A stretch of 64,000 nt of DNA from Ignavibacteria bacterium (GTDB lineage Bacteria; Bacteroidota; Ignavibacteria; Tepidaquicellales; OLB5). A program made the translations under genes and the position numbers. Of the stretch, positions 1 through 33,765 are shown one piece after another. Location of the stretch: the NCBI GenBank assembly GCA_019912545.1, contig JAIOIK010000112.1:10038-74037 (forward strand), given 5' to 3'. A model generated the notes under the pieces. The model was not told where the DNA came from. It did no database searches and worked only from the letters and a program-made list of their open reading frames with translations. The first letter of the stretch is position 1. Each line of letters begins with the position of its first letter.

Positions 1-3000
1 CTGTTTGGGCTTTAGGGCCTGTTTCTCTTCCGCCATCATCGTTCCGAAGTGATAGTGTTAATTCAGGTTTGTATCTTGTGCCAGTTATTTCAAGTACCAC
101 ATACATTACTTCTGTTGCATTATCAGCAGTACGAATGTTCTTATACTCAGCCTGAATATTCAGGAGTGGGTTGTTATAATCCCCGATGAAATCCAAATAG
201 CTGTTATTGATCTTGAAATTCTTATAAAATCTATAATATGAATCCCCTACTATATTTAGCCTTCCAAAGAGCTGGAATCTTCTGTCAAAAGTCCGGTTAT
301 CAAGCCTCAAATTGCCCTGAAACTCGCCGTTTAACTCTTCACGGGTAAGGCTGTTCATATTAACATTAATGAAAACATTCTTTTCCATCAGGATATCCAG
401 ATCGTAAGTGATGTAATCTGCAACAGTAGGCTCTCTTTTTTCAAGGATATAGTTATATCTTAAGAACGGATCAAGATCTGAAAGATCATCATTCGAGATC
501 TTAATAGTTGTATCAAGAAACTTATAACCATTGGGATCAGTCAAAATTCTATAAGTAAAATCGTCGGAATATATATCATATGCAAGGCTTGAAATTGCAG
601 GGAAGAAAATTTTAGCGTTCTTTATCATAAGCTGGCCTGAAACCAAAAGGTTATTAAGATTTCCTTTGATCCTAATCGGCGGATCACCGATGCCTGCAAG
701 CATTTCGCCGTAGAATCCAAACCTGTTTTGTATAGAGGAACCATCCAGCATAAACATTTCACCACTTGTTGTCAGATCAATATCATTAACGCTCAAGCCT
801 GAAAAATTAATTTTCCCGTTTACGTCAATGTGTTTTGACCTATCTTTATCATTAAACAGTGAAAAGTTCTCTACAATAAGGTCAGATTTATCTGTCTTAA
901 GCGTTGATTCAAATCTATAATACAGACCGTTCCATGTAAAAAAAAGTCTGCCTTTGGTAATATCGGCTTTACCAGTAAGTAACGGGTCAGAAATTGTCCC
1001 TGTAGCTTTTATCTCTCCATCAAGGAATCCCCTTACATCTGTGAAATTCGGGATTGCTTTGGAAAAGAAGTTGATCTGAAAGTTAGTAGCTTTTAAACTA
1101 AGATCAAGCGGACTTGTTATAACCGACATATAAGATGCGCTATCGGGGACTTGCAAAGGATTACTAAGCGGTACATTTCCAGTTAACCTAAGCTTACCCT
1201 GTCCCTGGGCATTGCTTAAGAGAACATCGGTTGAAAGATTATTATTGTAATAATCAATAAATGCATCAACCCTTCCAACCTTATTGCCGTCGTAACGCAG
1301 CAGGCTTGTGTTCAGTTCAAGTCCAAGCTTTGGGTCGTCAAGTGTACCTTTGAAAGTCATTAACACTCTTCTCACGTTGCCTTTAAATAAGTTTTCATAA
1401 GTACTGTATCCTCCTTTTTTATTATATAAAGCATTCGGATCATAAATAAGCTGCACCAAGGCGGGAATACTGATGCTGCCGGCTTCAAGGTACATGTTGC
1501 TTGTATCTTTGAAGGAATAGGTGCCTCCAATATTCAGTTTAACGTAGTCACCCGAAATATTAAATTTATCAAAATTTATCTCCTGCCTGCCGGAATAAGG
1601 ATGATATCCAACCAGCAACGTGTCATCGTTTTGTATATCGATCCTGTTATAACTCGCGAAAAGCTTATCAATACTCAGCGTAACAGAATCATTGTTAAGC
1701 ATTATATTTCCGTTTACATCAAGCCTTATAATAGAATCCTGTGCAGCATTGAGTGAAAAATGCTGAATGGCGTTAGCCAGATTAATGCTCGTCTTCACAC
1801 TGTCATATATCCGTGTACCAAGTCTAAGGGTATCAGCGTTAAATGTAATGTTTGAAGTGAACGAACTAAAATCTCCCTTTGGCGCAAAAGTATAATTTCC
1901 GTAATTGTTAAAATGCTTAAATTCAGCATCTGCATTTCTTAATAGTATTACAGTATCTTTGTACGCAAATTCATCAAGGTTTGCTTTTGTATAACCATTA
2001 AAGCCAAGCGAAGAATTCTTTATGCTTCCCTTAATATCTCCTTTTAAATACATGTCGCTTAAGAAGAACATCTTCGAAACTGCATCGGGATCTTTTGTTT
2101 TAAGCTCATAAGTAAAATCCATTGAAGCATTAGAAATAGCAGTGTTTTGCACAGGCATAAGAGTATCAAGGTTGAATTTCTTACTTATCTCATTTTGTAT
2201 CATTACTATGTTGCTTGCAATAACAACGCCGATTTCCGCAATCTTAAATGTACCCTTTGCATTGAAATCGATAAGGTTACTTGTTAACACCACGTAATCA
2301 TTTGCGCCTGATGTTGAGATTTTAAGATCAATCGGTGTAGCAAGAAAATCATAATTCCCGTAATATGAATTCGCCAGATTTATGTTGTAGGTTCCTTCGA
2401 GTCCTTCGGGGGATATTCCCCTTCCGTTCATATCGAACGCAAATGTGAGGCTGCTTTTATCATCAGCATTCTTTGTATATGTAGAAATATCCAGATTCTT
2501 TACATGGCCTTTAAGCGAATAAACAGGATTATTAAAATCACGGATATTTACATTGCCTTTAACCAGAGCATCAAATTTTCCGGATGCATAAGTAACGTCT
2601 GCTTCTATGTTATATCCCCGCAGGTTTAGAATGCCTGCTGATTTATCGATCTTCTGCTCGAGTAATTTCGTATCGTGAAGCTCATACTTTAAAGTTGTAT
2701 TTATATTAGCAAGATCAAATCCGCTTCCGATAGCCTCAACGTGCCCGTTTATATTGCTTTCAAGCTTTGGGTCTTTAATTACTTTGCCAATATTGCCGCC
2801 AGTTACATCAACTGAAGTGCTGTATTTGAAATTCGGAACTTTCAGGTTCATGTTATAAAACCCTTTGGCATTCCCAACTGTTGACTGCATATCAAAAGTT
2901 GATTCAAAATCCAGCGGCTCGCCTTTATATGTAACATTCCCTGTAACAACGCCTAAATGTGTATAATCAGGTATTGGCAGTCCCGGGGTATATCTCTTTG

Positions 3001-4177
3001 TATCATCAGGGTCAATTCTGAACTCATTGCTTTTCACATCAAACCACAAATATTCAGGATCAACAAGATTTTTCATCCTCCCGGTAAATCCCATATTGGT
3101 GTTTGGAGTTTCTATCCTGCATTTTTCTATAATTATATCATCAAACTTGCCTTTTGCTGTTAATTCAAAGAACAGGTCGCCATCAAGAAAGTCAACCGGA
3201 GGCAGGAAAGCTTTGAGATCATCAAAATCGAAATTTTTACCTACAACACTCAGCCTTAGGTCTTTGCCTTTAAACGATGGAAGACCGTCAACTTTCATCA
3301 GATCAAGTTTATCAATGAATACATAATCCATCATTACCCAGCTACGGCTTGATTCAATATTCAGCTTGTTGATCTCTGCGCGTGATTTTGAGATGTAAAA
3401 ATCTCCTGATAGCCCTTTGAGATCAAATCCAAAGTTTGAGTTGAATCCCAAATGGTCTATCCATAACTGAATTGCATTTTTATCATATTGCGCGCGGGTT
3501 TCAAGCGTAAGTGAGCTTATTTTAAGATTATCTGTTGTAAGTGATTTTGATGGTAATATATTTAAAGCTGTTATCGGGATATCCTGCGGTTTAACGGCGA
3601 GCATCACAAAATTCAGGTTTTCAATTCTTAAATGCTGAATGTCTATTTTCCACTCAAATTCGCTTGAATCCTGTGTAGTGTCTTCAGTGGAAAACAGATA
3701 TGCAAAATTCCACACTGAATCACCTTTATCATTAAATATCCTTGTGAAATTTACAGAAGGATTGGTTACGGTTGCCTCAGTAATTTCAATAGTCTTATCA
3801 AGCAGCTTAAATATATTAAAATTCACCTTAAAACGGTCAAGCTTTATCATCTCATCCTGCCTGACCTTAAGCATAGCATCTTTTACAATAATTTCGCTGA
3901 AGAAATTGCCTTCGATCTCACCAATCGTTAACGAAGAGCCTTTTTTGTTAAAATCTTCATTTAACTTGTCAACCAGATATCCTTTAAGAATATCCCTGAA
4001 TACAGCAGTTTGTGTAATAGAAACAAGCAGGGTTACAAGCAGAAGAATAATGCAAAAAGACAAAATAAAGTAAGAAAAAAACCTGGATTTTTTCTTTTGT
4101 TTTTGCGCTCCATTTTTTTTGAGTAGCTCCGGCGCTTTTGGACTCTTTAATGTTTCTATTTTTCTTTCTTCAGCCAA
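1..4177 (-). CDS. tamB: TamB/AsmA-like translocation-and-assembly-module protein (N-terminal ~1392 codons; C-terminus runs off the left window edge)
   Basis: Not in the ORF track because it is open at the window edge. My minus-strand translation met no stop from 4177 to 1. TTG start at 4177; an in-frame stop lies at 4189-4187 and there is no in-frame ATG before the TM helix. N-terminal TM helix FFSYFILSFCIILLLVTLLV is followed by >1300 aa of beta-rich sequence. The last residues seen (LFGRLNIVGDSYYRFYKNFKINNSYLDFIGDYNNPLLNIQAEY) resemble the TamB DUF490 C-terminal region. Confidence 0.7.
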   Translation of the reverse strand, partial: MAEERKIETLKSPKAPELLKKNGAQKQKKKSRFFSYFILSFCIILLLVTLLVSITQTAVFRDILKGYLVDKLNEDFNKKGSSLTIGEIEGNFFSEIIVKDAMLKVRQDEMIKLDRFKVNFNIFKLLDKTIEITEATVTNPSVNFTRIFNDKGDSVWNFAYLFSTEDTTQDSSEFEWKIDIQHLRIENLNFVMLAVKPQDIPITALNILPSKSLTTDNLKISSLTLETRAQYDKNAIQLWIDHLGFNSNFGFDLKGLSGDFYISKSRAEINKLNIESSRSWVMMDYVFIDKLDLMKVDGLPSFKGKDLRLSVVGKNFDFDDLKAFLPPVDFLDGDLFFELTAKGKFDDIIIEKCRIETPNTNMGFTGRMKNLVDPEYLWFDVKSNEFRIDPDDTKRYTPGLPIPDYTHLGVVTGNVTYKGEPLDFESTFDMQSTVGNAKGFYNMNLKVPNFKYSTSVDVTGGNIGKVIKDPKLESNINGHVEAIGSGFDLANINTTLKYELHDTKLLEQKIDKSAGILNLRGYNIEADVTYASGKFDALVKGNVNIRDFNNPVYSLKGHVKNLDISTYTKNADDKSSLTFAFDMNGRGISPEGLEGTYNINLANSYYGNYDFLATPIDLKISTSGANDYVVLTSNLIDFNAKGTFKIAEIGVVIASNIVMIQNEISKKFNLDTLMPVQNTAISNASMDFTYELKTKDPDAVSKMFFLSDMYLKGDIKGSIKNSSLGFNGYTKANLDEFAYKDTVILLRNADAEFKHFNNYGNYTFAPKGDFSSFTSNITFNADTLRLGTRIYDSVKTSINLANAIQHFSLNAAQDSIIRLDVNGNIMLNNDSVTLSIDKLFASYNRIDIQNDDTLLVGYHPYSGRQEINFDKFNISGDYVKLNIGGTYSFKDTSNMYLEAGSISIPALVQLIYDPNALYNKKGGYSTYENLFKGNVRRVLMTFKGTLDDPKLGLELNTSLLRYDGNKVGRVDAFIDYYNNNLSTDVLLSNAQGQGKLRLTGNVPLSNPLQVPDSASYMSVITSPLDLSLKATNFQINFFSKAIPNFTDVRGFLDGEIKATGTISDPLLTGKADITKGRLFFTWNGLYYRFESTLKTDKSDLIVENFSLFNDKDRSKHIDVNGKINFSGLSVNDIDLTTSGEMFMLDGSSIQNRFGFYGEMLAGIGDPPIRIKGNLNNLLVSGQLMIKNAKIFFPAISSLAYDIYSDDFTYRILTDPNGYKFLDTTIKISNDDLSDLDPFLRYNYILEKREPTVADYITYDLDILMEKNVFINVNMNSLTREELNGEFQGNLRLDNRTFDRRFQLFGRLNIVGDSYYRFYKNFKINNSYLDFIGDYNNPLLNIQAEYKNIRTADNATEVMYVVLEITGTRYKPELTLSLRNDDGGRETGPKAQT

Positions 4178-5818: not shown

Positions 5819-7612
5819 ATGCAATTTACCAAGCGAACAAATACATGCGGCGAGCTGGAGCTTGCTGATTCAGGAAAACGTGTCTCTCTTAACGGGTGGG
5901 TATCACAGGTCCGTGACTTGGGCGGGGTTATTTTTGTTAATCTAAGGGATAGATACGGCGTAACTCAGCTTACAATTCCTTCCGAAAACAAGCAAGTTTA
6001 CGATATTGCCAAATCACTTGGTTTGGAATATGTTATTTCGGCTACGGGGATAGTTCAGAAAAGAAGTTCCGCTAATCCGAATATGAAAACCGGTGAGGTT
6101 GAAGTCCTTGCGGAAATTATTGAAATATTGAATGTTTCTGAAACTACTCCTTTTGTAGTTGAGGAAGAAGTTAAGGCTTCCGAGGAGTTAAGATGGAAAT
6201 ACCGTTACCTGGATCTCAGAAGAAAAAAAATAGCCGATAACCTTGTTCTAAGGAGCAAAGTTTACCAGATAGTGCACAGATATTTTGAACGTGAGAATTT
6301 TGTTGAGATAGAAACTCCGATTTTAATGAAATCCACTCCAGAAGGTGCACGCGACTATCTTGTACCATCACGCGTTCATAAAGGAAAATTTTACGCGCTG
6401 CCGCAATCACCGCAAACATATAAGCAGATACTTATGGTAAGCGGAATGGATAAATACGTGCAAATATGCAAATGTTTCCGTGATGAAGACCTTAGGGCCG
6501 ATAGGCAGCCTGAGTTTACACAGATTGATCTTGAAATGAGTTTCGTTGAGGAAAAAGATGTATTCAAAGTTGTTGAAGGCGTTATTTGTGATATATGGAA
6601 AGAAGCTGCAGGCATTGAGCTAAATACTCCATTTAAAATTATGAGCTATGATGAAGCAATGCAGGCATTTGGAAGCGATAAGCCGGATTTAAGAGTCAAA
6701 GGTGAGATGAAAATCGTTAATATAACAGATACCGTTAAGAATACCGAATTCAAAGTTTTTAATGATGCAATTTCGCAAAAAGGAATTGTTGCAGGAATAA
6801 AATTGACCGCTCAGGAAGTTTCAAGAAAAATTATTGATTCATTGACAGATTATGTGAAGACATTAAAATTTGGCGGACTTGGTTATATTAAATATAATGC
6901 TGACGGATCATCTGCATCTCCGATGCTTAAATTTTTGAATGATGAGATTCAGTCCGGGATTAAGAAAGATTTTGATGCAAATCCGGGTGATGTTGTATTT
7001 ATTTTATCAGGCGAAAAGAAAAAGGTTCTTTCTGCGCTTGGCAATTTGCGGCTTAAGCTTGCTGAAATGTTTAATTTGATAGATGAGACAAAGTACGAAT
7101 TTGTGTGGATAAACAATTTCCCAATTTTTGGATTTGAAGAATCCGATAACAGCTTTTATGCAGAACACCATGCTTTTACTATGCCAAATACAGAAGACAT
7201 GGCAAAACTGGATAATGGGTATAAAAATCCGAAAGAAAATATAGAAGACCTCTTGAGCATAAGGGCAACATGTTATGACCTTGTTTGCAACGGAAACGAA
7301 TTTGGCTCAGGAAGCATTAGAATACACAGAAGCGACATTCAGCAGAAGGTATTTTCAGTTCTTGACCTAACCAAAGATCAGCAGGAGGAGAAGTTCGGAT
7401 TTTTACTGGATGCGTTCAAGTTCGGCGCTCCCCCACATGGCGGTTTTGCTCTCGGGTTTGATAGAATTATTGCCATTCTTTGCGGAACTAAGGATATCCG
7501 CGAAACAATAGCCTTCCCAAAAACGACAAGCGCAGTGGGATTGATGGATAGCTGCCCGAGTATCGTTGAAGAAAAACAACTAAAAGAGCTGGGAATATCA
7601 ATCAACAGTTAA
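5819..7612 (+). CDS. aspS: Aspartate--tRNA ligase
   Basis: Class IIb aaRS motifs (FRDEDLRADRQPEFTQID, GSGSIRIH, GLDRI-like FDRII). I place the start at ATG 5819 (MQFTKRTNTCGEL), which matches the usual AspRS N-terminus. The track start, TTG 5756, adds 21 non-homologous residues. A TATTTTTG box lies at 5804-5811. Confidence 0.9.
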   Translation: MQFTKRTNTCGELELADSGKRVSLNGWVSQVRDLGGVIFVNLRDRYGVTQLTIPSENKQVYDIAKSLGLEYVISATGIVQKRSSANPNMKTGEVEVLAEIIEILNVSETTPFVVEEEVKASEELRWKYRYLDLRRKKIADNLVLRSKVYQIVHRYFERENFVEIETPILMKSTPEGARDYLVPSRVHKGKFYALPQSPQTYKQILMVSGMDKYVQICKCFRDEDLRADRQPEFTQIDLEMSFVEEKDVFKVVEGVICDIWKEAAGIELNTPFKIMSYDEAMQAFGSDKPDLRVKGEMKIVNITDTVKNTEFKVFNDAISQKGIVAGIKLTAQEVSRKIIDSLTDYVKTLKFGGLGYIKYNADGSSASPMLKFLNDEIQSGIKKDFDANPGDVVFILSGEKKKVLSALGNLRLKLAEMFNLIDETKYEFVWINNFPIFGFEESDNSFYAEHHAFTMPNTEDMAKLDNGYKNPKENIEDLLSIRATCYDLVCNGNEFGSGSIRIHRSDIQQKVFSVLDLTKDQQEEKFGFLLDAFKFGAPPHGGFALGFDRIIAILCGTKDIRETIAFPKTTSAVGLMDSCPSIVEEKQLKELGISINS

Positions 7613-7672
7613 CAATTTTCAATTAGCAATATTCATATTCAAGAATCTCGATTTGCAGCAAACATTAAAAAC

Positions 7673-8224
7673 ATGAGCCATAAGATAGGAAATACAGAAA
7701 TAGAAGTAATCCAGGGTGATATAACCTTGCTTGATGTTGAGGCGATCGTGAATCCCGCAAATACATTTTTGCTTCATTCTGGCGGACTTGCAGCCGCAAT
7801 AGTAAAGCGCGGCGGAATGATAATTCAGCAGGAATCAAAAAAGATCGGCAATATTCCAACCGGCACGGCAGTCATAACAAGCGGCGGCAATTTGAAAGCC
7901 AAGCATGTGATTCATGCAGTCGGCCCGAAGTATAAAGACGGTAAATCCGGTGAAGCCCAGAAGCTTGCCTCGGCGGTAAGCTCGGCCCTGATAGTTGCTG
8001 AACGTAAGAAGCTGAAATCAATCGCAATACCTGCAATTAGTTCAGGGATATTTGGTTACCCCACTACTGAGAGTGCAAAGATAATTGTAGAGACAACACT
8101 TGAGCATTTTGATGCTAAGAAGAAATCCAGCGAAGAAACCACGCTTGAAAAAGTTGTGTTCTGCTTATTAGATGAAACTGCTTTTGAACAATTTAATAGA
8201 GAAGTAAAAAATAAATTCAAATAG
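7673..8224 (+). CDS. Macro-domain protein (ADP-ribose binding / O-acetyl-ADP-ribose deacetylase-like)
   Basis: 183 aa with GDITLLDVEAIVNPAN...GGLAAAI...HAVGP...IAIPAISSGIFGYP, the canonical macro-domain motifs. Confidence 0.8.
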   Translation: MSHKIGNTEIEVIQGDITLLDVEAIVNPANTFLLHSGGLAAAIVKRGGMIIQQESKKIGNIPTGTAVITSGGNLKAKHVIHAVGPKYKDGKSGEAQKLASAVSSALIVAERKKLKSIAIPAISSGIFGYPTTESAKIIVETTLEHFDAKKKSSEETTLEKVVFCLLDETAFEQFNREVKNKFK

Positions 8225-24704: not shown

Positions 24705-27266
24705 TTGATAGAATTTCCGTCAGCACAGAAAGATCGCTTCAGAGACCTGATCGAGGGCCTGAATATTATTACCTACGAATTTGATCTTTCCGAAAATAGG
24801 TATATATATGTAAGCAGAATGGCTGAATCAATACTTGGATACAGTTACAATTCCTGGTTTACAATTGGTTTTTGGTATGATCATCTGCATCCCGATGACC
24901 GTATGTGGGCATCAGAATTCGGTAGATACCATACTAAGCAGCACAAAGCTCACGAATATGAATACAGAATGATAGCCTCAGATGGTTCGGTAAAATGGCT
25001 TAAAGATATCGCCACAGTCAATTTAAAGAACGGCGAACCTGAATGTTTGCAAGGAGTATTAATTGATATGACACAGCGCAAGCAAACCGAGTTTGAGCTG
25101 ATGCAGAATAAAGAAATGTATAAAACCCTGGTTGAACAGCAATCCGAAATGATAACCAGGTGGAGACCCGATGGTACTTTTACATATGTGAACGATGTTT
25201 ACTGCAGATTCTTCGAAAAAGATAAAAGAGAATTGATCGGGAAAACTTACATTCCTCAAATGCCTCCTGACGATCTGGATAGATTTACAGCGTTCTTCAA
25301 ACAACTTACAAAAGATAAACCTGTTGGTACTTTTGTTCACAGGGTTATATTGCCGGATGGTGAGATAAGATGGCTGAAATGGACTGATAAGGCACTCTTT
25401 GATGATTCCGGTGAAATAGTTGAATACCAGACAGTCGGGCGTGATATAACCGTTCAGAAAAGGGCCGAAATAGCCCTGATGGAAAGTGAAAAACAGCTTC
25501 AATTGATCTTTGATAACGCCCCAATTGGTATGGCATTAACAGACTTTGAAAATAACTACATAAAAGTTAACAAAGCGTATTGCGAAATTGTTGGATATAC
25601 AAAAGAAGAACTGATGACTATGACCTTTGAGGAGATTTCACATCCCGAAGATAAAAAACTGGATGAAGAAATTACAGCAAAGGCAAAATTGGGGCATGTG
25701 ACTAATTTCAACTTCGAAAAAAGATACATTCATAAAAACGGAAGTACAGTCCTGACTGAACTTCATTTAAATGTATTAAAGAATAATACCGGCAGCCCGC
25801 ACCAGATCATAGCGCAGGTTGTTGATATAACAAAAAGAAAAGAATCTGAACACATATTAAAACAAACGCAGGCAAGACTTTCCGCTATATTGAATAACCT
25901 TCTCATAGTCACCATTTATGAATACGGAGAGGATATAAATTTTGTTTCCGAAAATATCCTGGATATTCTGGGTTATTCCTCAGATGAATTCATGAATAAC
26001 AAAGATCTGTTCAGCAATCTTATGCTTAAGGAAGATATCATAAAATATGACAGAAGGGTTGACGAGTGGAAGAAGAACGGCTCAGCCGGAGTATTAAGTA
26101 ATGAAATCAGGGTAAGGAACAGGAAAGACGAGATTGTCTGGCTTGAAGACCATATGTTTGAGGTGAAACCGGAAAATGGTAAGACTTATTTTTCGGGAAT
26201 CATGATCGATATTACACAGCAGAAAAAGACGAAACAGAAGATACACGATACTGAAACCAAGTTCGCAGCTGTTTTGAAAAACCTGCCAAAAGTTGTTGTT
26301 TACCAGTCCGGTGAGGGAAGAGACTTTGTTTCAGAAAATATAGCCGAAATGATCGGTTATCAGCCGGGAGATATAATTTCCGAAAAATACTTCTTTGGCA
26401 AAATCATGCATCCGGATGACCTTGTCAACGTGAAGAGTTCTCTCCAGAACTGGCACAAGGTAAACGAAGAAGGTATCCAGATAATGGAATTCCGGCTGGA
26501 AAAGAAATCCGGCGGATATGTCTGGATCGAAGACCATATGTTCAAAGTTAAAGCAGATGACGGACAGGAATACTTATCAGGAGTGCTGATTGATGTTACG
26601 GAAAGAAAGCTATATGAACAAAAAATCAGCCAGTCATTAAAGGAAAAAGAACTGCTGTTAAAGGAAATTCATCACAGGGTCAAAAATAACCTTCAGGTTG
26701 TATCCAGTTTGCTAAAACTGCAATCGGGATATGTGAGCGATTCTCACACACTTGATATCTTAACAGATAGCCAGAACAGAGTGAAATCTATGGCGCTGGT
26801 ACATCAGAAGCTATACCAGTCAAAAGATTATTCAAAGATCGATTTTTCTGAATATCTCAAACAACTTTCGGTTCACCTGCTGAATTCATTCAGAACAACC
26901 TCAAACAGTGTGGAGTTAAATGTCAGTTCGGATAATGTATTCTTAAGTATTGATTTGGCAATCCCGTGCGGTTTGATAATTAATGAGCTTATTTCGAATT
27001 CACTTAAGTATGCGTTCCCGGTTGAAAGAAAAGGTATAATTAATGTAGGAGTAAATTCATTTAACAATAATGAATATCATATTACAGTACAGGATAATGG
27101 AATAGGCTTCCCGAAAGACATTAATTATAGAGATACGAAGTCTCTTGGTTTACAGCTCGTGAATACTTTGGTCGGGCAAATAGACGGCACAATTTCTATG
27201 GATAATCACGTTGGAACTTCGTTCAAAATAGGATTCTCCTCAAAAGAGAACTCAAAACTAAACTAA
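24705..27266 (+). CDS. Multi-PAS sensor histidine kinase (HisKA_2 + HATPase_c)
   Basis: 853 aa with five or more PAS/PAC units. H-box EIHHRVKNNLQVVSSLL, N-box NELISNSLKYAF, G-box QDNGIGFP. TTG is the only start that keeps the first PAS intact; an in-frame TAG lies 6 nt upstream. Confidence 0.85.
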   Translation: MIEFPSAQKDRFRDLIEGLNIITYEFDLSENRYIYVSRMAESILGYSYNSWFTIGFWYDHLHPDDRMWASEFGRYHTKQHKAHEYEYRMIASDGSVKWLKDIATVNLKNGEPECLQGVLIDMTQRKQTEFELMQNKEMYKTLVEQQSEMITRWRPDGTFTYVNDVYCRFFEKDKRELIGKTYIPQMPPDDLDRFTAFFKQLTKDKPVGTFVHRVILPDGEIRWLKWTDKALFDDSGEIVEYQTVGRDITVQKRAEIALMESEKQLQLIFDNAPIGMALTDFENNYIKVNKAYCEIVGYTKEELMTMTFEEISHPEDKKLDEEITAKAKLGHVTNFNFEKRYIHKNGSTVLTELHLNVLKNNTGSPHQIIAQVVDITKRKESEHILKQTQARLSAILNNLLIVTIYEYGEDINFVSENILDILGYSSDEFMNNKDLFSNLMLKEDIIKYDRRVDEWKKNGSAGVLSNEIRVRNRKDEIVWLEDHMFEVKPENGKTYFSGIMIDITQQKKTKQKIHDTETKFAAVLKNLPKVVVYQSGEGRDFVSENIAEMIGYQPGDIISEKYFFGKIMHPDDLVNVKSSLQNWHKVNEEGIQIMEFRLEKKSGGYVWIEDHMFKVKADDGQEYLSGVLIDVTERKLYEQKISQSLKEKELLLKEIHHRVKNNLQVVSSLLKLQSGYVSDSHTLDILTDSQNRVKSMALVHQKLYQSKDYSKIDFSEYLKQLSVHLLNSFRTTSNSVELNVSSDNVFLSIDLAIPCGLIINELISNSLKYAFPVERKGIINVGVNSFNNNEYHITVQDNGIGFPKDINYRDTKSLGLQLVNTLVGQIDGTISMDNHVGTSFKIGFSSKENSKLN

Positions 27267-27271
27267 AGCAT

Positions 27272-27691
27272 TCATTTTATACCATCATAAAACCGGATGA
27301 ACTCTGATCTTATTTCATCCCTCACCCGCCGATAAACTTTCAGGATTTCCTCTTTAGACCCGATTGCATCAGCAGGATCATCAAATCCGATATGCAACCG
27401 GTTTTTAACTTCACCCGTAAATACCGGGCAAACTTCTTTTGCATTATCACAAACAGTTATCACGTAATCAAATGAATCACCGGTGAATTCATTTACATTT
27501 TGCGGAAACTGTGCTGAAATATCAATACCGGTCTCTTTCATTACTTCAACTGCATAAGGATTTACTTCCTTTTCCGGCCTGGTCCCGGCAGAATACACGT
27601 CCAGTTCACTATCAAAACTCTTAAAAAATCCTTCAGCCATTTGACTTCTGCATGAGTTACCCGTACATAATACCAAAATTTTAGCTTTCAT
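27272..27691 (-). CDS. arsC: Arsenate reductase, thioredoxin-coupled LMW-PTP family
   Basis: CTGNSCRS P-loop plus a VCDNAKEVCP cysteine pair (C-X6-C), as in Bacillus/Staphylococcus ArsC. No arsR, arsB or acr3 nearby. Confidence 0.65.
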   Translation of the reverse strand: MKAKILVLCTGNSCRSQMAEGFFKSFDSELDVYSAGTRPEKEVNPYAVEVMKETGIDISAQFPQNVNEFTGDSFDYVITVCDNAKEVCPVFTGEVKNRLHIGFDDPADAIGSKEEILKVYRRVRDEIRSEFIRFYDGIK

Positions 27692-27761: not shown

Positions 27762-28706
27762 ATGACAAAGGCAATAATTATTATAATATTCATCATTTTA
27801 TCGATATTAGTCGGGGGATGCTCGGATACAGGAGCTATATCCAAAAATGAATCAAAAGGGGATTCCCTTATACTCCAAAACGATGTAAAAAAAGACCTTT
27901 CGTCAATTGAGGAAATTACTTACGGGCTTGATTATAATTCTGCACTTGAGAACTATTCCAAAGTGATGCCTGAAAATGCATCTGTTACCCGGTTCAGGTA
28001 TTTTGTTATAATTTCAGATCTTGGTGAAGAATTAACCTATTCGCTCATAGATAATGATATAAGGAACACTATCAGCTCTATGGAATCGAATTTCGTTTCT
28101 AAAACACCCGTTGATGTTACACCAATATTTCTTTTCTCAGATTTTGAAAAATACAAAACATTTGTATTGAGCAATTTCAATATTGAAGAAAGTGATATTT
28201 CTCCATACGGATTCTTTAAAATTTCCAAAAATACGATTGCAATAAGATACGTAAACTGGAAAGGCAGTATCTCACATGAGGTTACACACAAATTCACAAA
28301 AAGAGATTTCCCGGATATGCCTTCCTGGTTTGATGAAGGATTTGCTTCATTAAATGAGAAGTCAACATTTAGAAACGGGGTTCTAATTGGCGATTTCAGT
28401 TTCAGGATAATACCGCTAAGAAGAGCTTTGAAAGAGAATACTTATGCCGGGCTTGAAACATTAATGCAGACAGATGATAACGAACTGTACGGTAAGAGAT
28501 CATCTTTCTATTATGCGCAGTCAAGATACCTGTTAATGTACCTTCAGCAAAAGGGCTTATTAGTTGACTTTTATAAACACTTCAGGGATACATACACTGG
28601 AGACAAAACCGGAATCAGCCAGCTTGAGAAAGTAACAGGCAAACCCATCAGCCAAATTGATGAAGAAGTGCTGAAGTTTGTGAAAAGTTTTGACGATGTG
28701 AGATAA
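27762..28706 (+). CDS. Lipoprotein with HExxH...E metallopeptidase-like motif (MA-clan / DUF1570-like)
   Basis: Lipobox LVGGC, then SHEVTHKF followed 13 residues later by WFDEGFASL. Confidence 0.45.
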   Translation: MTKAIIIIIFIILSILVGGCSDTGAISKNESKGDSLILQNDVKKDLSSIEEITYGLDYNSALENYSKVMPENASVTRFRYFVIISDLGEELTYSLIDNDIRNTISSMESNFVSKTPVDVTPIFLFSDFEKYKTFVLSNFNIEESDISPYGFFKISKNTIAIRYVNWKGSISHEVTHKFTKRDFPDMPSWFDEGFASLNEKSTFRNGVLIGDFSFRIIPLRRALKENTYAGLETLMQTDDNELYGKRSSFYYAQSRYLLMYLQQKGLLVDFYKHFRDTYTGDKTGISQLEKVTGKPISQIDEEVLKFVKSFDDVR

Positions 28707-28707
28707 A

Positions 28708-30069
28708 CTAACCCGCTATTTCATCTGCAGCTTCCTCACCAGTAATTATTGCGCCTTCCATGAAACCCTGCCAGTCAGATAAATGTTCACCTGCAAAATA
28801 AGTGCTTAGGAATTTCTTCTTTAGTATCGGCATAACTGTATACCACTGCCCTTTTCCATACAAAGCATAAGCACCTTTTGAAGTCTGGTTTGTTCCCCAA
28901 TAATAGCTGATCTGCTTAACTACTTTGTTCTTAACATCGCCAAACCCAGCCCTAAGCGAGTCTGATATCATATTAATCTTAAATTCATCATTTTGCCTGC
29001 TTACAACATCTGCTTTATCTCCAATTGTGTATGAAATCAACGCGCCCTTTTTACCCGGCTGGTTCTTTGTGCCATGATAGAAATAATGTCCGTAAACATC
29101 TGTGACCATATCAAACGATTCATCATTCCAGAATCTTTCATCAAACAAAATTGCATGTTTACTGATTCTGGCATATTGCAAAGCATTGATAGCATCAATT
29201 TTTTCCTCCGGAAGACCGGGTTTCCAGCTGATCCTGCTTAAAGAATATGTTGGAGTTGTGCATATGAGGTTATCACCGGAAAAAGTTTTTCCGTTATTGC
29301 AAATTACAGAAACTGTTCCATCCAGCTGCTGTACTTCAACTACTTTATGGCCAAGCAAAATGTTATCCGCACCGATTTTTTCTGCAAGCTTCTCCGGAAG
29401 CCTGCTGTTCCCTCCTTTGATCTTAAAGTCCATCTCATTTTTCTCGCTGGATTCGGCATATTCTGCCATTGCAGCATAAGCAGAAACATGCCTGATACTT
29501 TCACCAAAATCTGTACTATCAAACAATTCCCTGATCTGAAGATCGCGCTCACTTATACCATTATTAACAAGATAACGCCACCAATCCATTTTATCAAGTT
29601 TTTGCTTGTCCAGATCTGTAAGTTTGTCATATTCTGTCATTATCTTTGCAAACTTGGTTTTCCAATCGCTGGAATAATCCCACGCTCCTTTTGGATAATA
29701 CTGCCCTGCATAAATCAAATGAGAATCGAACTGATAATTCATAAGTTCAAGCCCCAGTTCACCGCTAAGAGCAAGAATTCTTTCATGCGATGCACCAACC
29801 CAATCCGCACCAAGTTCTATCACAAGGTCTTCGTCCTTATCGATTGTGTGAGAGAATACCCTTCCTCCAATCCTGCCCCTGCTTTCAAGTATGGTAACCT
29901 CACACCCCCTTTGCTTAAGGCGGTATGCCGCTGCAAGTCCTGCAAATCCTGCGCCAATAATAATTACCTTTGGTTTTCCAATCGAATTAATGCTAACAGC
30001 GCCGGGCAGTATAAGTGTGCCCGCTGCCAGAAGAGCTGATGATTTCAAAAAGTCCCTGCGAGATGTCAT
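28708..30069 (-). CDS. Tat-exported flavin-containing amine oxidase family protein
   Basis: Twin-arginine signal MTSRRDFLKSSALLAAG, FAD dinucleotide motif IIIGAGFAGLAAAYRL...ILESRGRIGGR, and C-terminal YFAGEH. Confidence 0.8.
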   Translation of the reverse strand: MTSRRDFLKSSALLAAGTLILPGAVSINSIGKPKVIIIGAGFAGLAAAYRLKQRGCEVTILESRGRIGGRVFSHTIDKDEDLVIELGADWVGASHERILALSGELGLELMNYQFDSHLIYAGQYYPKGAWDYSSDWKTKFAKIMTEYDKLTDLDKQKLDKMDWWRYLVNNGISERDLQIRELFDSTDFGESIRHVSAYAAMAEYAESSEKNEMDFKIKGGNSRLPEKLAEKIGADNILLGHKVVEVQQLDGTVSVICNNGKTFSGDNLICTTPTYSLSRISWKPGLPEEKIDAINALQYARISKHAILFDERFWNDESFDMVTDVYGHYFYHGTKNQPGKKGALISYTIGDKADVVSRQNDEFKINMISDSLRAGFGDVKNKVVKQISYYWGTNQTSKGAYALYGKGQWYTVMPILKKKFLSTYFAGEHLSDWQGFMEGAIITGEEAADEIAG

Positions 30070-30087
30070 ATGTTCCGGCGATAATTT

Positions 30088-31152
30088 TCAGTTAACTGCC
30101 CTTAAAACAAAATATATAATAAGAACAAAATATGATCCGGCAAAAATAAACAGGCTGTACCTATCAAGAGCTTGTGATTTCTTTTCTTTCCCATTCTTCA
30201 TGAAATTAAGAGAAATTGTTGAAATCAGAATGCATAAGAATATATAGATAAATGAAATATCATGCAGAATATCAACCAGCGTAAGGCTCTCATTCTGAGG
30301 CAATGTAGATGAAATAACATATTGGCTTGCAATGGCGGCAAAAATCGCGCCTACCGATAAGCCAAACCTGGGATCAAGATCAAGCGGATTAATGAAGAAA
30401 GTAAGAAGTGATATCAGCACAGAAATGAAAAGGCCAATAAACAGCTTAAAGAAAAGCCCATTGCCTTCTCTTTCAATTGTGAAGAAGATCACTGCCCTTG
30501 AATAGGATGAAAATTCATTAATGGGAATATTCGGGTCACCATAATTTGTTTCATAAACATGATCAAGTACTTTGATACCGAAATCTTTAATCTCCCAGCC
30601 ATCAATATGAACATTTTTGTCAATTCTGCTTGCGATTGTATCCGCAACAAAAACCAGTTTCGAATTATCTTTGTCAAAATCTTCAATATATATCTCGATC
30701 TTCTGCCTGTCAAAAGGAAAGTGAGACACATCCCATTCTTCCTTTATTGTGCTATTGATCCTTACGGTCTGGTACAGGTTCTTCCCTCTTTTCTCACTGG
30801 TTTCCCCCGATTTGTTATATTCAGTTGCATTCATTACTTCAAGGTATTCCAGCATATCAATGCTGTCTCTTGAGGCGTTGTACCATAAGTAAAAATCAAT
30901 ATTAAGCTTACGTCCGGGAAAATCGAGGTCATACAAAGAAAAAATATAAGCCCCAATCTTCACAGTATCAGCAGGCCCGGATGGTTCTTCCTCAACAGGA
31001 GTTTCTTCGCTTGCTTTTTTTTCGGTAATCGAATTTACTTTCAGGGAATCCTTTTTACTCTCCTGTAATAGCGCACCGGAGGCAATCAGGAAGAACAGAA
31101 AAAGCGGTATTGCAGCTATAGTAATTCTTCGGGAACTGTACTTGTTGAGCAT
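30088..31152 (-). CDS. Prokaryotic pentameric ligand-gated ion channel (Cys-loop/Pro-loop receptor homologue)
   Basis: Signal/TM, then a ~200-aa beta-rich ectodomain with the hallmark loop WDVSHFPFDRQKIEIYIED. Four TM helices follow, including an M2-M3 pattern SSTLPQNESLTLVD. Confidence 0.8.
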   Translation of the reverse strand: MLNKYSSRRITIAAIPLFLFFLIASGALLQESKKDSLKVNSITEKKASEETPVEEEPSGPADTVKIGAYIFSLYDLDFPGRKLNIDFYLWYNASRDSIDMLEYLEVMNATEYNKSGETSEKRGKNLYQTVRINSTIKEEWDVSHFPFDRQKIEIYIEDFDKDNSKLVFVADTIASRIDKNVHIDGWEIKDFGIKVLDHVYETNYGDPNIPINEFSSYSRAVIFFTIEREGNGLFFKLFIGLFISVLISLLTFFINPLDLDPRFGLSVGAIFAAIASQYVISSTLPQNESLTLVDILHDISFIYIFLCILISTISLNFMKNGKEKKSQALDRYSLFIFAGSYFVLIIYFVLRAVN

Positions 31153-31168
31153 TCTGTATTATTTTAGA

Positions 31169-31750
31169 TTATGATTTCAGTTTCGATGATAAAAAATACA
31201 CTTCTTCTGCAAGACGTTTGAGTTTCCTTTTAAGAGGGTCTTCATTGATACTGCCATCTGCATGCACAAGTTTATTTGCTGAGCCTATGGCAAGACTTGA
31301 AGGCGCGACGATCCCCCTTAAACTGTGAACAATATTTATCATAGTTTCAAGTGTGCCAAAACCTGCATTTTCGGCTCCGGCTGCCGCAATGAGTCCAACA
31401 GGTTTTCCCGTTAGATAAGGAGGTGTTCTATCCGAAAGGAATTCGAAATAATCAATAACATTCTTGAATGCGGCACTTACGGTTCCATGATATTCCGGCG
31501 AGGCGAAAACAAAACCATCCGACGAACTGATAATGTTAAGCATATCATCGACTGCGGATATATCAGGCTTGATGCCTTTGGAAAAACTGCACAGCGGAAA
31601 ACTCACTTCTTTAATATCAATAATCACCGTTTCCGCGCCAATTGCTGAAATTTCTGCCATTGCAGACTTTAATATGGCAAGGGTTGAAGAATTTTGCTCC
31701 AGACTTCCGCCAATACCTGTTATTTTCAGTTTTCCGCTCATAAAGTTCAA
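31169..31750 (-). CDS. NAD(P)H-dependent FMN reductase family protein
   Basis: 193 aa with a flavodoxin-like fold: ITGIGGSLEQNSST and SPEYHGTVSAAFKNVIDY. Confidence 0.75.
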   Translation of the reverse strand: MNFMSGKLKITGIGGSLEQNSSTLAILKSAMAEISAIGAETVIIDIKEVSFPLCSFSKGIKPDISAVDDMLNIISSSDGFVFASPEYHGTVSAAFKNVIDYFEFLSDRTPPYLTGKPVGLIAAAGAENAGFGTLETMINIVHSLRGIVAPSSLAIGSANKLVHADGSINEDPLKRKLKRLAEEVYFLSSKLKS

Positions 31751-31874
31751 TTATAATAAACTATTAATTAATAAATTAGTCATTCATTTTAATTTATTGA
31801 CCGATCTTGGGGAAGTGGAATATAGAAACATTATCCACTTTAAAGTATGGAATCAATTGAGTAAATTTGCACTT

Positions 31875-32177
31875 ATGACCAAAGAACAGATTTCCAAAGC
31901 TATAAAAGCGCTTCAAAACATTTCAATCGATTTCAAAATTGATTATGTGTTTTTTACCGGCAAATGTATAATAAGAGCGATCGTTCTTAATAATCCTGAT
32001 GATATGAGTAAAGTAAAGAGTATACTGGATGGGGATTTTATGAAGAACCTGAAAATGAAGAAGAGCAAAGAATGGTATTTGGGAGACCAGAAGGAAGTTA
32101 TTTACATGCAGTTGAAAAAGAAGATAGAGATCAGCATTGCCGATTACGAAGAATTTCTTGTTAACAATTACGCATAA
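31875..32177 (+). CDS. Hypothetical small protein (100 aa)
   Basis: This is the 3' part of track ORF 31533..32177; the 5' part is antisense to the FMN reductase gene. ATG 31875 is the first ATG outside that overlap, and a TTG near 31797 is an alternative. Its 3' end overlaps the gatA 3' end by 17 nt. Confidence 0.35.
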   Translation: MTKEQISKAIKALQNISIDFKIDYVFFTGKCIIRAIVLNNPDDMSKVKSILDGDFMKNLKMKKSKEWYLGDQKEVIYMQLKKKIEISIADYEEFLVNNYA

Positions 32178-33576
32178 TATAATTCCCAAGTTTTAAGACT
32201 GATACTTCATCAAAATCCCTGCCGATGATCTGCAATCCAACGGGAAGTTTTTCATTATCAAAGCCAATTGGTATGCTTAAAGCCGGGTTTCCCGAAAGGT
32301 TTGATGATGTTGTATAAACATCATTCAGGTACATCTCCAGCGGATCATCGGTCTTTTCACCTATCTTAAAAGCTGTTGTTGGAGTAGTTGGGGTAATAAT
32401 AAGATCAACATCTTTGAATGCCTTTACAAAATCATTTTTGATCAGACGCCTTACTTTCTGAGCTTTCCTGTAATATGCATCATAATAACCCGCCGAAAGT
32501 ACATATGTACCAAGCATTATCCTGCGCTTTACTTCCGCTCCAAATCCCTCAGTTCTTGAATTTACATACATTTCTTCAAGGTCGTTATATGAAGAAGCTC
32601 TTACACCATACCTGGCTCCGTCATACCTGGCAAGGTTGCTGGATGCTTCCGCTGTAGTTAATATATAGTACGCCTGGATTGAATATTTAAGGTTTGGGAG
32701 ACTGATATTCTTTATCACAAATCCGTCTGATGCAAGTTTCTTAATTACTTCTTTGATCTGTAATCTGATTTCGTCCTGCAATCCTTCTTCAAACAGATCC
32801 GGTACGATACCAATTGTTAATTTGTCCCTAAATTCAAAGTTATGACTGTAATCATTGACATCATTTTCCGCAGAAGTAGAGTCTCCATTATCATGGCCGG
32901 CCATCACTTCAAGAACTAAAGCAGCATCGGCAATATTTTTTGCAAACGGCCCGATGCAATCGAATGAAGAGGCAAAGGCAGTGAGCCCCTTTCTTGAAAT
33001 TCTGCCATAAGTAGGCTTTAGGCCAACTATTCCGCAAAGCGCTGCCGGCTGCCTGATAGAGCCGCCTGTATCAGTACCAAGAGAGACCATGCACATACCT
33101 GCGGCTACTGCAACTGCACTGCCACCTGAAGATCCGCCGGGCACTCTTGTATTATCAACAGGGTTTTTGACTATACCATAGGCTGAATTCTCGTTGGATG
33201 AACCCATTGCAAACTCATCACAATTTGTTTTGCCGATTATTATTGCATCTTCATCTATTAATCGCTTAACAGCCGTTGCTGTGTATAATGGCTCAAAATT
33301 CTGTAATATTTTAGAACCGCATGTTAAAGTCCTGCTCTTAATAGATAGTACATCCTTCACTGCAATGACCATGCCTGCAAGTTTACCTGCACTTTTGTTT
33401 TTTAATTTCAGGTCAATTTCTGCTGCCCTGGCAAGTGATTCTTCTTCAAAAACAGAAAGGAAAGCATTCAAATGCTTTCCTTTTTTAATATTGTCCAAAT
33501 AATACTTTACGGCTTCTAAAACAGAAGTCTTACCTGCATCCAGACCGGAACGTAAAGCAGAATAATCATTATACAT
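32161..33576 (-). CDS. gatA: Glutamyl-tRNA(Gln) amidotransferase subunit A
   Basis: 471 aa with the amidase signature GGSSGGSAVAVAAG and GTDTGGSIRQPA. Confidence 0.9.
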   Translation of the reverse strand: MYNDYSALRSGLDAGKTSVLEAVKYYLDNIKKGKHLNAFLSVFEEESLARAAEIDLKLKNKSAGKLAGMVIAVKDVLSIKSRTLTCGSKILQNFEPLYTATAVKRLIDEDAIIIGKTNCDEFAMGSSNENSAYGIVKNPVDNTRVPGGSSGGSAVAVAAGMCMVSLGTDTGGSIRQPAALCGIVGLKPTYGRISRKGLTAFASSFDCIGPFAKNIADAALVLEVMAGHDNGDSTSAENDVNDYSHNFEFRDKLTIGIVPDLFEEGLQDEIRLQIKEVIKKLASDGFVIKNISLPNLKYSIQAYYILTTAEASSNLARYDGARYGVRASSYNDLEEMYVNSRTEGFGAEVKRRIMLGTYVLSAGYYDAYYRKAQKVRRLIKNDFVKAFKDVDLIITPTTPTTAFKIGEKTDDPLEMYLNDVYTTSSNLSGNPALSIPIGFDNEKLPVGLQIIGRDFDEVSVLKLGNYIMRNC

Positions 33577-33579
33577 AGA

Positions 33580-33765
33580 TCAGCTCTGCTTTTTCTCCTC
33601 TGTTGGCGCGCTGGTAATCTCTGTTTCAATATCTTTTGAAGCTTTTTTGAATTCTCTTATTCCTTTGCCAAGCCCGCTCATCAGATCGGGTATTTTCTTA
33701 GCTCCAAATAAAACCAGAATTACGATACATATCAGAATTATTTCCTGTGTCCCTAATCCGAACAT
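33580..33765 (-). CDS. tatA: Twin-arginine translocase subunit TatA/E
   Basis: 61 aa: [42 protein letters not shown]. Confidence 0.9.

Follow-up and report, generated by a model that had tools for sequence, protein, structure and literature searches.

A pentameric ligand-gated ion channel homologue encoded between an FMN reductase and a Tat-signal amine oxidase in an uncultured Ignavibacteria bacterium

Three closely packed genes and their products

The 64,000-nt stretch of DNA analyzed here (the window) comes from an uncultured Ignavibacteria bacterium, and its table of open reading frames (ORFs) holds three consecutive minus-strand genes whose products are an NAD(P)H-dependent flavin mononucleotide (FMN) reductase (31750..31169, 193 aa), a homologue of the ligand-gated ion channels of the pentameric class (pLGICs; 31152..30088, 354 aa), and a flavin amine oxidase with a twin-arginine translocation (Tat) signal (30069..28708, 453 aa). 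Direct reading of the junctions shows the reductase ending in TAA, followed by 16 nt (31153..31168, minus strand) and the ATG of the channel, which in turn ends in TGA, followed by 18 nt (30070..30087, minus strand) and the ATG of the oxidase. A first-pass annotation of this DNA had named the same three products, a FPFDRQ Pro-loop and four transmembrane helices in the channel, a SRRDFLK twin-arginine signal in the oxidase, and an operon-like packing with gaps of 16 and 18 nt. All of these descriptive points stand in light of the family matches, homology, modelled fold and junction reading set out in this section. The same annotation had gone on to suggest that the oxidase and the channel act together on a common amine, and it is this suggestion that we weigh further below.

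The 354-aa protein is a divergent but genuine pLGIC (Pro-loop receptor). A phmmer search of the PDB returned 199 pLGIC chains at E ≤ 0.1 (best 5.1e-11), among them ELIC, GLIC and the GABA-A and glycine receptors, which match residues 98-341 at 5e-11 to 1e-7. The AlphaFold (AF2) model has a mean predicted local distance difference test (pLDDT) score of 67, with most of the extracellular domain at about 70-90 and the transmembrane domain lower, and it displays the pLGIC fold, in which DSSP assigns strands within residues 62-228 and helices to residues 233-254, 261-283, 292-319 and 323-353. Foldseek comparison of this model with GLIC, the rho1 GABA-A receptor and the glycine receptor (GlyR) gave E values of 1e-16 to 6.5e-18 at probability 1.0, with GLIC at 6.5e-18. 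Curated family thresholds, on the other hand, were missed: NCBIfam LGIC_1 matched at 9.7e-18 but with 64.6 bits against a cut-off of 500, the Pfam ligand-binding model Neur_chan_LBD (PF02931) reached 13.6 bits against a cut-off of 26, PF02932 was absent, and no Pfam model matched at E ≤ 0.01. Because fold and homology both agree, we attribute these missed thresholds to the coverage that the models give to a divergent subfamily.

At its N-terminal end, the channel has a predicted signal or anchor helix (residues 7-31). A disordered linker (about 32-59) leads from there to the extracellular beta-sandwich (62-228), and the transmembrane helices M1-M4 (233-353) follow. The transmembrane domain is encoded at 30094..30456 (minus strand) and was delimited by DSSP on the model together with columns of our alignment A2, in which DLDPRFGL is invariant at the start of M2 and LPQ stands at its end. 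The FPFDRQ motif of the Pro-loop (residues 145-150; 30703..30720, minus strand) aligns with ELIC F119-Q124; P146 and D148 are invariant in both of our alignments (A1 and A2), and F145 and F147 are invariant in A1. A segment resembling loop C, YETNYGDP…Y (residues 200-217; 30502..30555, minus strand), places Y204 and Y217 on ELIC Y175 and F188 in the phmmer alignment.

The third gene of the trio (28708..30069, minus strand) encodes a flavin amine oxidase related to the monoamine oxidases (MAOs). It matches PF01593 (Amino_oxidase) at 1.5e-64 over residues 42-451, with 219.4 bits against a cut-off of 19.8, and carries the dinucleotide-binding motif GAGFAG at residues 39-44. Residues K304, Y401 and F436 align with K296, Y398 and Y435 of MAO-B, so that both the active-site lysine and the aromatic cage are present. 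The closest PDB match is 7EME (5e-53), and the MAOs follow at about 1e-27. The twin-arginine motif SRRDFLK occupies residues 3-9 (30043..30063, minus strand, from the ORF translation) and is followed by the hydrophobic region SSALLAAGTLILPGA. Although the Pfam TAT_signal model scores just below its cut-off (22.1 against 22.7 bits), the RRxFL motif is kept in 118 of 119 full-length oxidase homologues. Proteins identical to products of the trio are on record under the names "MAG: hypothetical protein" and "FAD-dependent oxidoreductase", the channel being annotated as hypothetical.

Criteria have been described for telling periplasmic oxidases from cytochrome-c dehydrogenases among Tat-exported flavoprotein amine oxidoreductases (PMC12224317). 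No ORF with a CxxCH motif was found within 26-35 kb here, and no cytochrome c gene adjoins the oxidase gene; by these criteria, the absence of an adjoining cytochrome c gene makes O2 the probable acceptor, and a periplasmic O2-using oxidase is more likely than a cytochrome-c dehydrogenase. The alternative of a NicA2-type dehydrogenase that depends on cytochrome c is judged less likely, given that no CxxCH ORF lies nearby.

The first gene of the trio (31169..31750, minus strand) encodes an NAD(P)H-dependent FMN or quinone reductase that lacks a signal peptide and is predicted to be cytoplasmic. It matches PF03358 (FMN_red) at 2e-29, with 102.6 bits against a cut-off of 24. Translation probably begins in truth at the ATG of position 31741, since homologues align from residue 7. 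An arsC-like gene for a low-molecular-weight phosphatase lies nearby (27272-27691, minus strand), and the reductase was for this reason considered as an ArsH; this identity was discarded because the score is 42.6 bits where the cut-off demands 292, and the ArsH and SsuE/MsuE models alike score far below their cut-offs.

The three genes form a well-delimited unit. On the 3' side, a convergent gene for a putative lipoprotein resembling Peptidase_MA (27762..28706, plus strand; weak PF13485 match, 0.0019) terminates 1 nt away from the stop codon of the oxidase. On the 5' side, 124 nt (31751..31874) separate the start of the reductase from that of a divergent 100-aa ORF on the opposite strand (31875..32177, plus strand), and it is this convergent gene and divergent intergenic region together that delimit the trio. 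The 100-aa ORF begins MTKEQISKAIKALQ and has no Pfam match; with tblastn, it is recovered from the same place in 18 loci, where it shows 31-77% identity. In loci that lack the reductase (L022, L024, L041, L042, L054), it stands directly upstream of the channel.

Within these limits, the genes share one strand and their spacers are too short for independent promoters. In related genomes, the spacer equivalent to the first measures 2-70 nt (29 loci), and that equivalent to the second has a median of 11 nt (33 loci) and is at most 25 nt in 26 of them. Co-transcription of the trio is thus very likely, with the promoter presumably within 31751-31874. Scans of 27.2-34 kb for sigma-70 promoters and intrinsic terminators gave counts no higher than the shuffled expectation; such scans are uninformative for the phylum of the Ignavibacteria, and they were uninformative here on the operon boundaries. 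Comparison of 27-34 kb with Rfam at E ≤ 1 gave no match, neither to a riboswitch nor to a leader.

Short spacing by itself is not unusual in this genome, where tight packing is the norm. Gaps of at most 25 nt separate 11 of the 33 same-strand neighbor pairs of the window, and an internal control lies just upstream of the trio, where the functionally unrelated genes tatA and gatA are 3 nt apart; these two observations are the basis for regarding tight packing as normal here. The tatA gene encodes a TatA/E protein (61 aa, 33580-33765, minus strand; PF02416, 1.2e-18) and ends 3 nt before gatA (32161-33576, minus strand). The oxidase, a Tat substrate, thereby has a Tat component encoded some 3.5 kb upstream, which is probably a coincidence. 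Downstream of the trio lies a gene for a multi-PAS histidine kinase of the HisKA_2 type (853 aa, 24705-27266, plus strand), and no response regulator was noticed beside it.

Predicted pocket and pore of the channel subfamily

The channel belongs to a large subfamily, for which an exhaustive HMMER search counts 399 clusters formed at 50% identity when E ≤ 1e-30 is required, and 1441 when the limit is E ≤ 1e-10, with members in the Ignavibacteria, Saprospiraceae, Caulobacterales and Spirochaetes. Pfam largely misses this subfamily, and genomes annotate its members as hypothetical proteins. Alignment A2 shows three features that are invariant across the subfamily: M2 opens with DLDPRFGL and closes with LP, and loop C carries the motif YxxxYGD.

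ELIC is gated by primary amines (PMC3430861), as the first-pass annotation had stated, and a set of its pocket residues surrounds the ammonium group of the ligand and relays binding to the pore (PMC3316889). In phmmer pairwise alignments, on which all of our residue correspondences to ELIC rest, E157, Y204, Y217 and R219 of the window channel align with ELIC E131, Y175, F188 and R190. In A2, all four are either invariant or conserved to 90% or more, with Y204 in the former group and Y217 conserved to at least 90%. The equivalent of ELIC F133 in loop B is variable in the subfamily, and the residues of the complementary side could not be aligned. A small cationic ligand is therefore plausible for the channel, to judge from this pairwise alignment. 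The same residues are equally kept in members of the subfamily that have no oxidase nearby.

When R262 is taken as position 0', positions 2', 6' and 9' of M2 are an invariant Gly, Gly and Phe, a register that is one residue off that of phmmer, and M2 carries at its inner mouth two acidic residues, D258 and D260, that are invariant in A2. Ion selectivity is not readable from the sequence, because position -1' is a proline, as in the PAR motif of anion channels. The predicted Gly 2'/6' and Phe 9' together with DLDPRFGL and the YxxxYGD loop C make up an unusual set of pore and pocket signatures.

These features bear on a product-based coupling of oxidase and channel, in which ammonium or a cationic amine would enter the cell through an open cation pore as a form of nitrogen scavenging, or in which H2O2 or an aldehyde would gate the channel. 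A periplasmic oxidase with no adjacent cytochrome c gene would be likely, by the criteria cited above (PMC12224317), to release NH4+ and H2O2 in an O2-dependent manner, and the invariant D258 and D260 are compatible with cation conduction. With the proline at -1', however, ion selectivity cannot be read off the pore sequence, and the distribution of the genes described in the next section argues against this coupling just as it does against a shared amine ligand. We consider it improbable.

Conservation of the neighborhood and the function of the trio

A scan in which each GTDB species was represented by one genome yielded 33 loci and a metagenome scan 80 more, and with more added by look-up of exact proteins, about 120 related loci were available in total. 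Neighborhoods were read in flanks of 4-6 kb, with unlinked partners being beyond the reach of the analysis. We defined the clade of the window channel by a channel identity of at least 54% and counted gene retention in its 39 non-duplicate loci.

The trio belongs to a syntenic block that runs purS-purQ-tatA-gatA, the small 100-aa ORF (reversed), reductase, channel, oxidase, the Peptidase_MA-like gene (reversed), the arsC-like gene, and the histidine kinase gene (reversed). This order is kept in most loci of the clade and recurs in at least 29 loci, so that the adjacency of channel and oxidase is not peculiar to this genome; had it been, this would have told against the proposal of the first-pass annotation. 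The oxidase was retained beside the channel in 29 of 33 loci; for the other members of the block, the figures are 26/28 for the arsC-like gene, 25/27 for the small ORF (among the most persistent neighbors of the channel), 21/23 for purQ, 24/29 for the Peptidase_MA-like gene, 20/26 for gatA, 20/27 for the kinase gene, and 23/30 for the reductase, which is among the least retained. The retention of the oxidase is thus no higher than that of unrelated flanking genes, and its adjacency to the channel does not rise above the background.

Departures from the full block are found as well, and every sub-combination of the three genes occurs inside it. Channel and oxidase are found without the reductase in L041 and L024, and in L019 only a 51-aa remnant of the reductase is left. 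The channel occurs without either partner in L022 and L087, where it is followed directly by the arsC-like gene, and in L042, where a Tricorn/Omp85-like gene follows. Conversely, L125 (3394-5359) has the same block with the reductase followed by the oxidase across a 40-nt gap and no channel gene. In our rough neighbor-joining trees, the L125 oxidase groups with that of L023 inside the clade, a nested position that implies secondary loss of the channel.

Two loci of the clade show local peculiarities. In L024, a 1.1-kb non-coding spacer (6967-8062) parts channel and oxidase in this one genome, and no recognizable ORF remnant was found in it. A channel homologue of 65% identity lies in an unrelated context in L040, where genes for a DAO-family FAD oxidoreductase, a nitroreductase and an aldehyde dehydrogenase (1-3214 and 6001-6999) are located 2.5-6 kb upstream of the channel, with other genes in between. 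These neighbors are perhaps a chance echo of the theme of amine oxidation.

The L125 arrangement could also be read as a sign that it is reductase and oxidase that work as a pair, for instance in the redox housekeeping of flavins or quinones tied to amine oxidation, with the channel an inserted passenger. The two enzymes, however, are assigned to different compartments, as the reductase would remain in the cytoplasm and the oxidase would be exported by Tat. In addition, the reductase is missing or reduced to a remnant in the three loci named above and is poorly retained overall, and the oxidase occurs without a reductase in five other contexts. We therefore hold this pairing to be highly improbable; nor does any evidence tie the reductase to the by-products of the oxidase, a redox role that the first-pass annotation had assigned to it.

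Outside the clade, the association disappears. Among 76 distant channel loci, whose channels belong to the same subfamily (27-53% identity) and carry both DLDPRFGL and YxxxYGD, not one has an FMN reductase or an amine oxidase in its 5-6 kb flanks (phmmer, E < 1e-4). In this neighborhood survey, a check of the kind that the first-pass annotation had called for, the oxidase is common beside the channel within the clade and was never seen beside it in the distant loci. Clustering of neighboring ORFs among these 76 loci, in search of an alternative conserved partner, found no family in more than 5 loci; the neighbors that recur reflect local housekeeping synteny (Tmk, an RsmD-like methyltransferase, DUF3822, NusB, TrmD and enolase). 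Seen from the oxidase, the picture is similar. Orthologues of 59-64% identity lie in five loci outside the block (L034, L036, L038, L123, L124), from Chitinophagaceae, other Ignavibacteriae and other contigs, and none of the five has a channel gene nearby. Taken with L125 inside the block, none of these six further oxidase contexts provides an independent recurrence of the pair. In L036 (5001-6822) and L123 (4001-5938), which come from a different Ignavibacteriae lineage and have no channel nearby, the oxidase is followed by an arsC-like gene, so that the adjacency of oxidase and arsC-like gene outlasts that of oxidase and channel.

On this evidence, the most economical view, and in our judgment a reasonably probable one, is that the trio consists of co-transcribed passengers in a compact, conserved and slowly rearranging block, that the products work independently, and that the genes are separable modules and do not form an obligate functional unit. 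The link between channel and oxidase would then amount at most to shared expression in this clade. We picture the workings of the locus as follows. A promoter within the 124-nt divergent region would drive joint transcription of the trio. The N-terminal helix of the channel would serve to export or anchor it, and the protein would assemble into a homopentamer, which, given the ELIC-like acidic and aromatic pocket facing the periplasm (E157, Y204, Y217, R219), would most likely be opened by a small cationic ligand of the amine type. Ions would pass through an M2 pore with invariant residues predicted as G2', G6' and F9', and with D258 and D260 forming an acidic ring at the inner mouth. The oxidase would fold with its FAD in the cytoplasm before export by Tat to the periplasm, where it would convert an amine to an aldehyde or imine and ammonium, probably with O2 as acceptor. 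The reductase would act as a cytoplasmic NAD(P)H:flavin/quinone reductase.

Several observations weigh against treating the three genes as independent passengers. The short spacer between channel and oxidase persists down to a channel identity of 54%, and the two are therefore very likely co-expressed across many species. Both products are predicted to face the periplasm, and because the ELIC ammonium-contact residues are kept in the one and the MAO lysine and aromatic cage in the other, a shared amine ligand is chemically plausible. Furthermore, the conservation of a gene neighborhood cannot speak against a functional link between genes that are unlinked.

These same observations are the strength of the proposal made by the first-pass annotation, which we restate as a loose, clade-specific sense-and-degrade scheme. 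A periplasmic amine would open the channel and the co-transcribed oxidase would remove the amine, ending or tuning the signal, in analogy to a neurotransmitter receptor and its clearance enzyme. The genes are co-directional and closely spaced, and the channel-oxidase pair is found in both deep branches of the clade and is ancestral to it. Moreover, the Tat signal of the oxidase and the signal or anchor helix and extracellular domain of the channel would bring both products to the same compartment, where the E/Y/Y/R pocket of the channel resembles that of a receptor itself gated by primary amines and the oxidase presents an MAO-like cage. What tells against the scheme is its distribution, for the adjacency is retained no better than background synteny, the channel keeps intact pocket residues where the oxidase is absent (L022, L040, L042), the oxidase in turn persists in L125, which has no channel, and the pair does not recur independently in the 76 distant loci that share the pocket motif. 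With all sub-combinations of the genes in existence, the proposal has no specific support beyond co-transcription, and we regard it as rather unlikely. Perhaps, in this clade, a channel of this large and uncharacterized subfamily is gated by a periplasmic biogenic amine whose level is set by the co-transcribed, Tat-exported MAO-like oxidase, mirroring the logic of neurotransmitter receptors and MAOs; this we consider somewhat more doubtful still. The reading of the genes as independent passengers is accordingly the one that we carry forward.

Comparison with known systems

The reductase has its best PDB relatives among the YhdA-type NADPH azoreductases (8.5e-12), with which it has the flavodoxin-like fold of PF03358 in common. 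It differs from reductases of the YhdA, ChrR and ArsH types in scoring far below every NCBIfam equivalog cut-off (for example, 42.8 against 212 for MsuE).

The oxidase shares with human MAO-A/B, the bacterial monoamine oxidase 8P84 and putrescine oxidase the PF01593 fold, an FAD-binding GxGxxG motif, the catalytic-site lysine and a Tyr/Phe cage. Unlike the MAOs, it has alanine in place of the cysteine that binds FAD covalently, in addition to its Tat signal and predicted periplasmic location. Its closest solved relative, 7EME, is deposited under the generic name 'NAD(P)/FAD-dependent oxidoreductase' and aligns over residues 3-449, a range that includes the N-terminal leader region. There, 7EME has SRSEF where the window oxidase has SRRDF, and it has Ile and Thr in place of Y401 and F436, so it may differ in both export and chemistry. 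A literature search found no paper describing 7EME, and this closest solved relative consequently offers no clue to the substrate. Tat-exported amine dehydrogenases of the NicA2/Pnao type belong to the same superfamily and resemble the window oxidase in their Tat signal and periplasmic location, whereas their genes adjoin that of a cytochrome c, their electron acceptor, and none lies near the window oxidase.

Among characterized channels, ELIC (Erwinia/Dickeya) is a Pro-loop receptor that shares with the window channel the lack of Cys-loop cysteines, a short M3-M4 loop and the FPFDRQ motif, and its pocket residues on the principal side align with E157, Y204, Y217 and R219. The relationship is nonetheless distant (phmmer E about 1e-8). 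ELIC differs at its F133, at the start of M2 and at position 9', where the window channel has DLDPRFGL and a predicted Phe, and the long N-terminal anchor and linker are features of the window channel. The proton-gated GLIC of Gloeobacter is the best structural match to the channel model, with about 325 aligned columns, at a sequence identity of only 15-16%.

For microbial pLGICs, no biological role has yet been established, nor has any of them been examined in vivo (PMC4795631). If the arrangement described here were indeed an amine-gated receptor paired with an oxidase, it would provide the first physiological context and the first native ligand class for a bacterial pLGIC. If the oxidase shared the ligand of the channel, its substrates would restrict the candidates for the native agonist, and the pair would form an evolutionary parallel to the receptors and MAOs of animals. 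The neighborhood alone does not justify the conclusion of a shared ligand; the value of the locus lies rather in a cheap, testable lead and in a newly delineated channel subfamily.

The first-pass annotation was aware of no described pairing of this kind, and our targeted literature searches, for pLGICs paired with amine oxidases and for surveys of pLGIC neighborhoods, likewise yielded nothing relevant except the study of Tasneem et al. (2004; PMC549065). The channel-oxidase arrangement thus counts as undescribed; judged by the evidence at present, it adds a further case to gene families already known and is not a new system. The contexts reported by Tasneem et al. (2004) include fusions of pLGICs to PBP-I, MCP-N and Cache domains, operons with PBP-II or Cache proteins, and a Na+/H+ symporter. 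Amine oxidases are not among them, and in this respect the window locus stands apart. The likeness between those contexts and this one is that, in each, a neighboring periplasmic protein that handles small molecules may serve as a pointer to the ligand of the channel.

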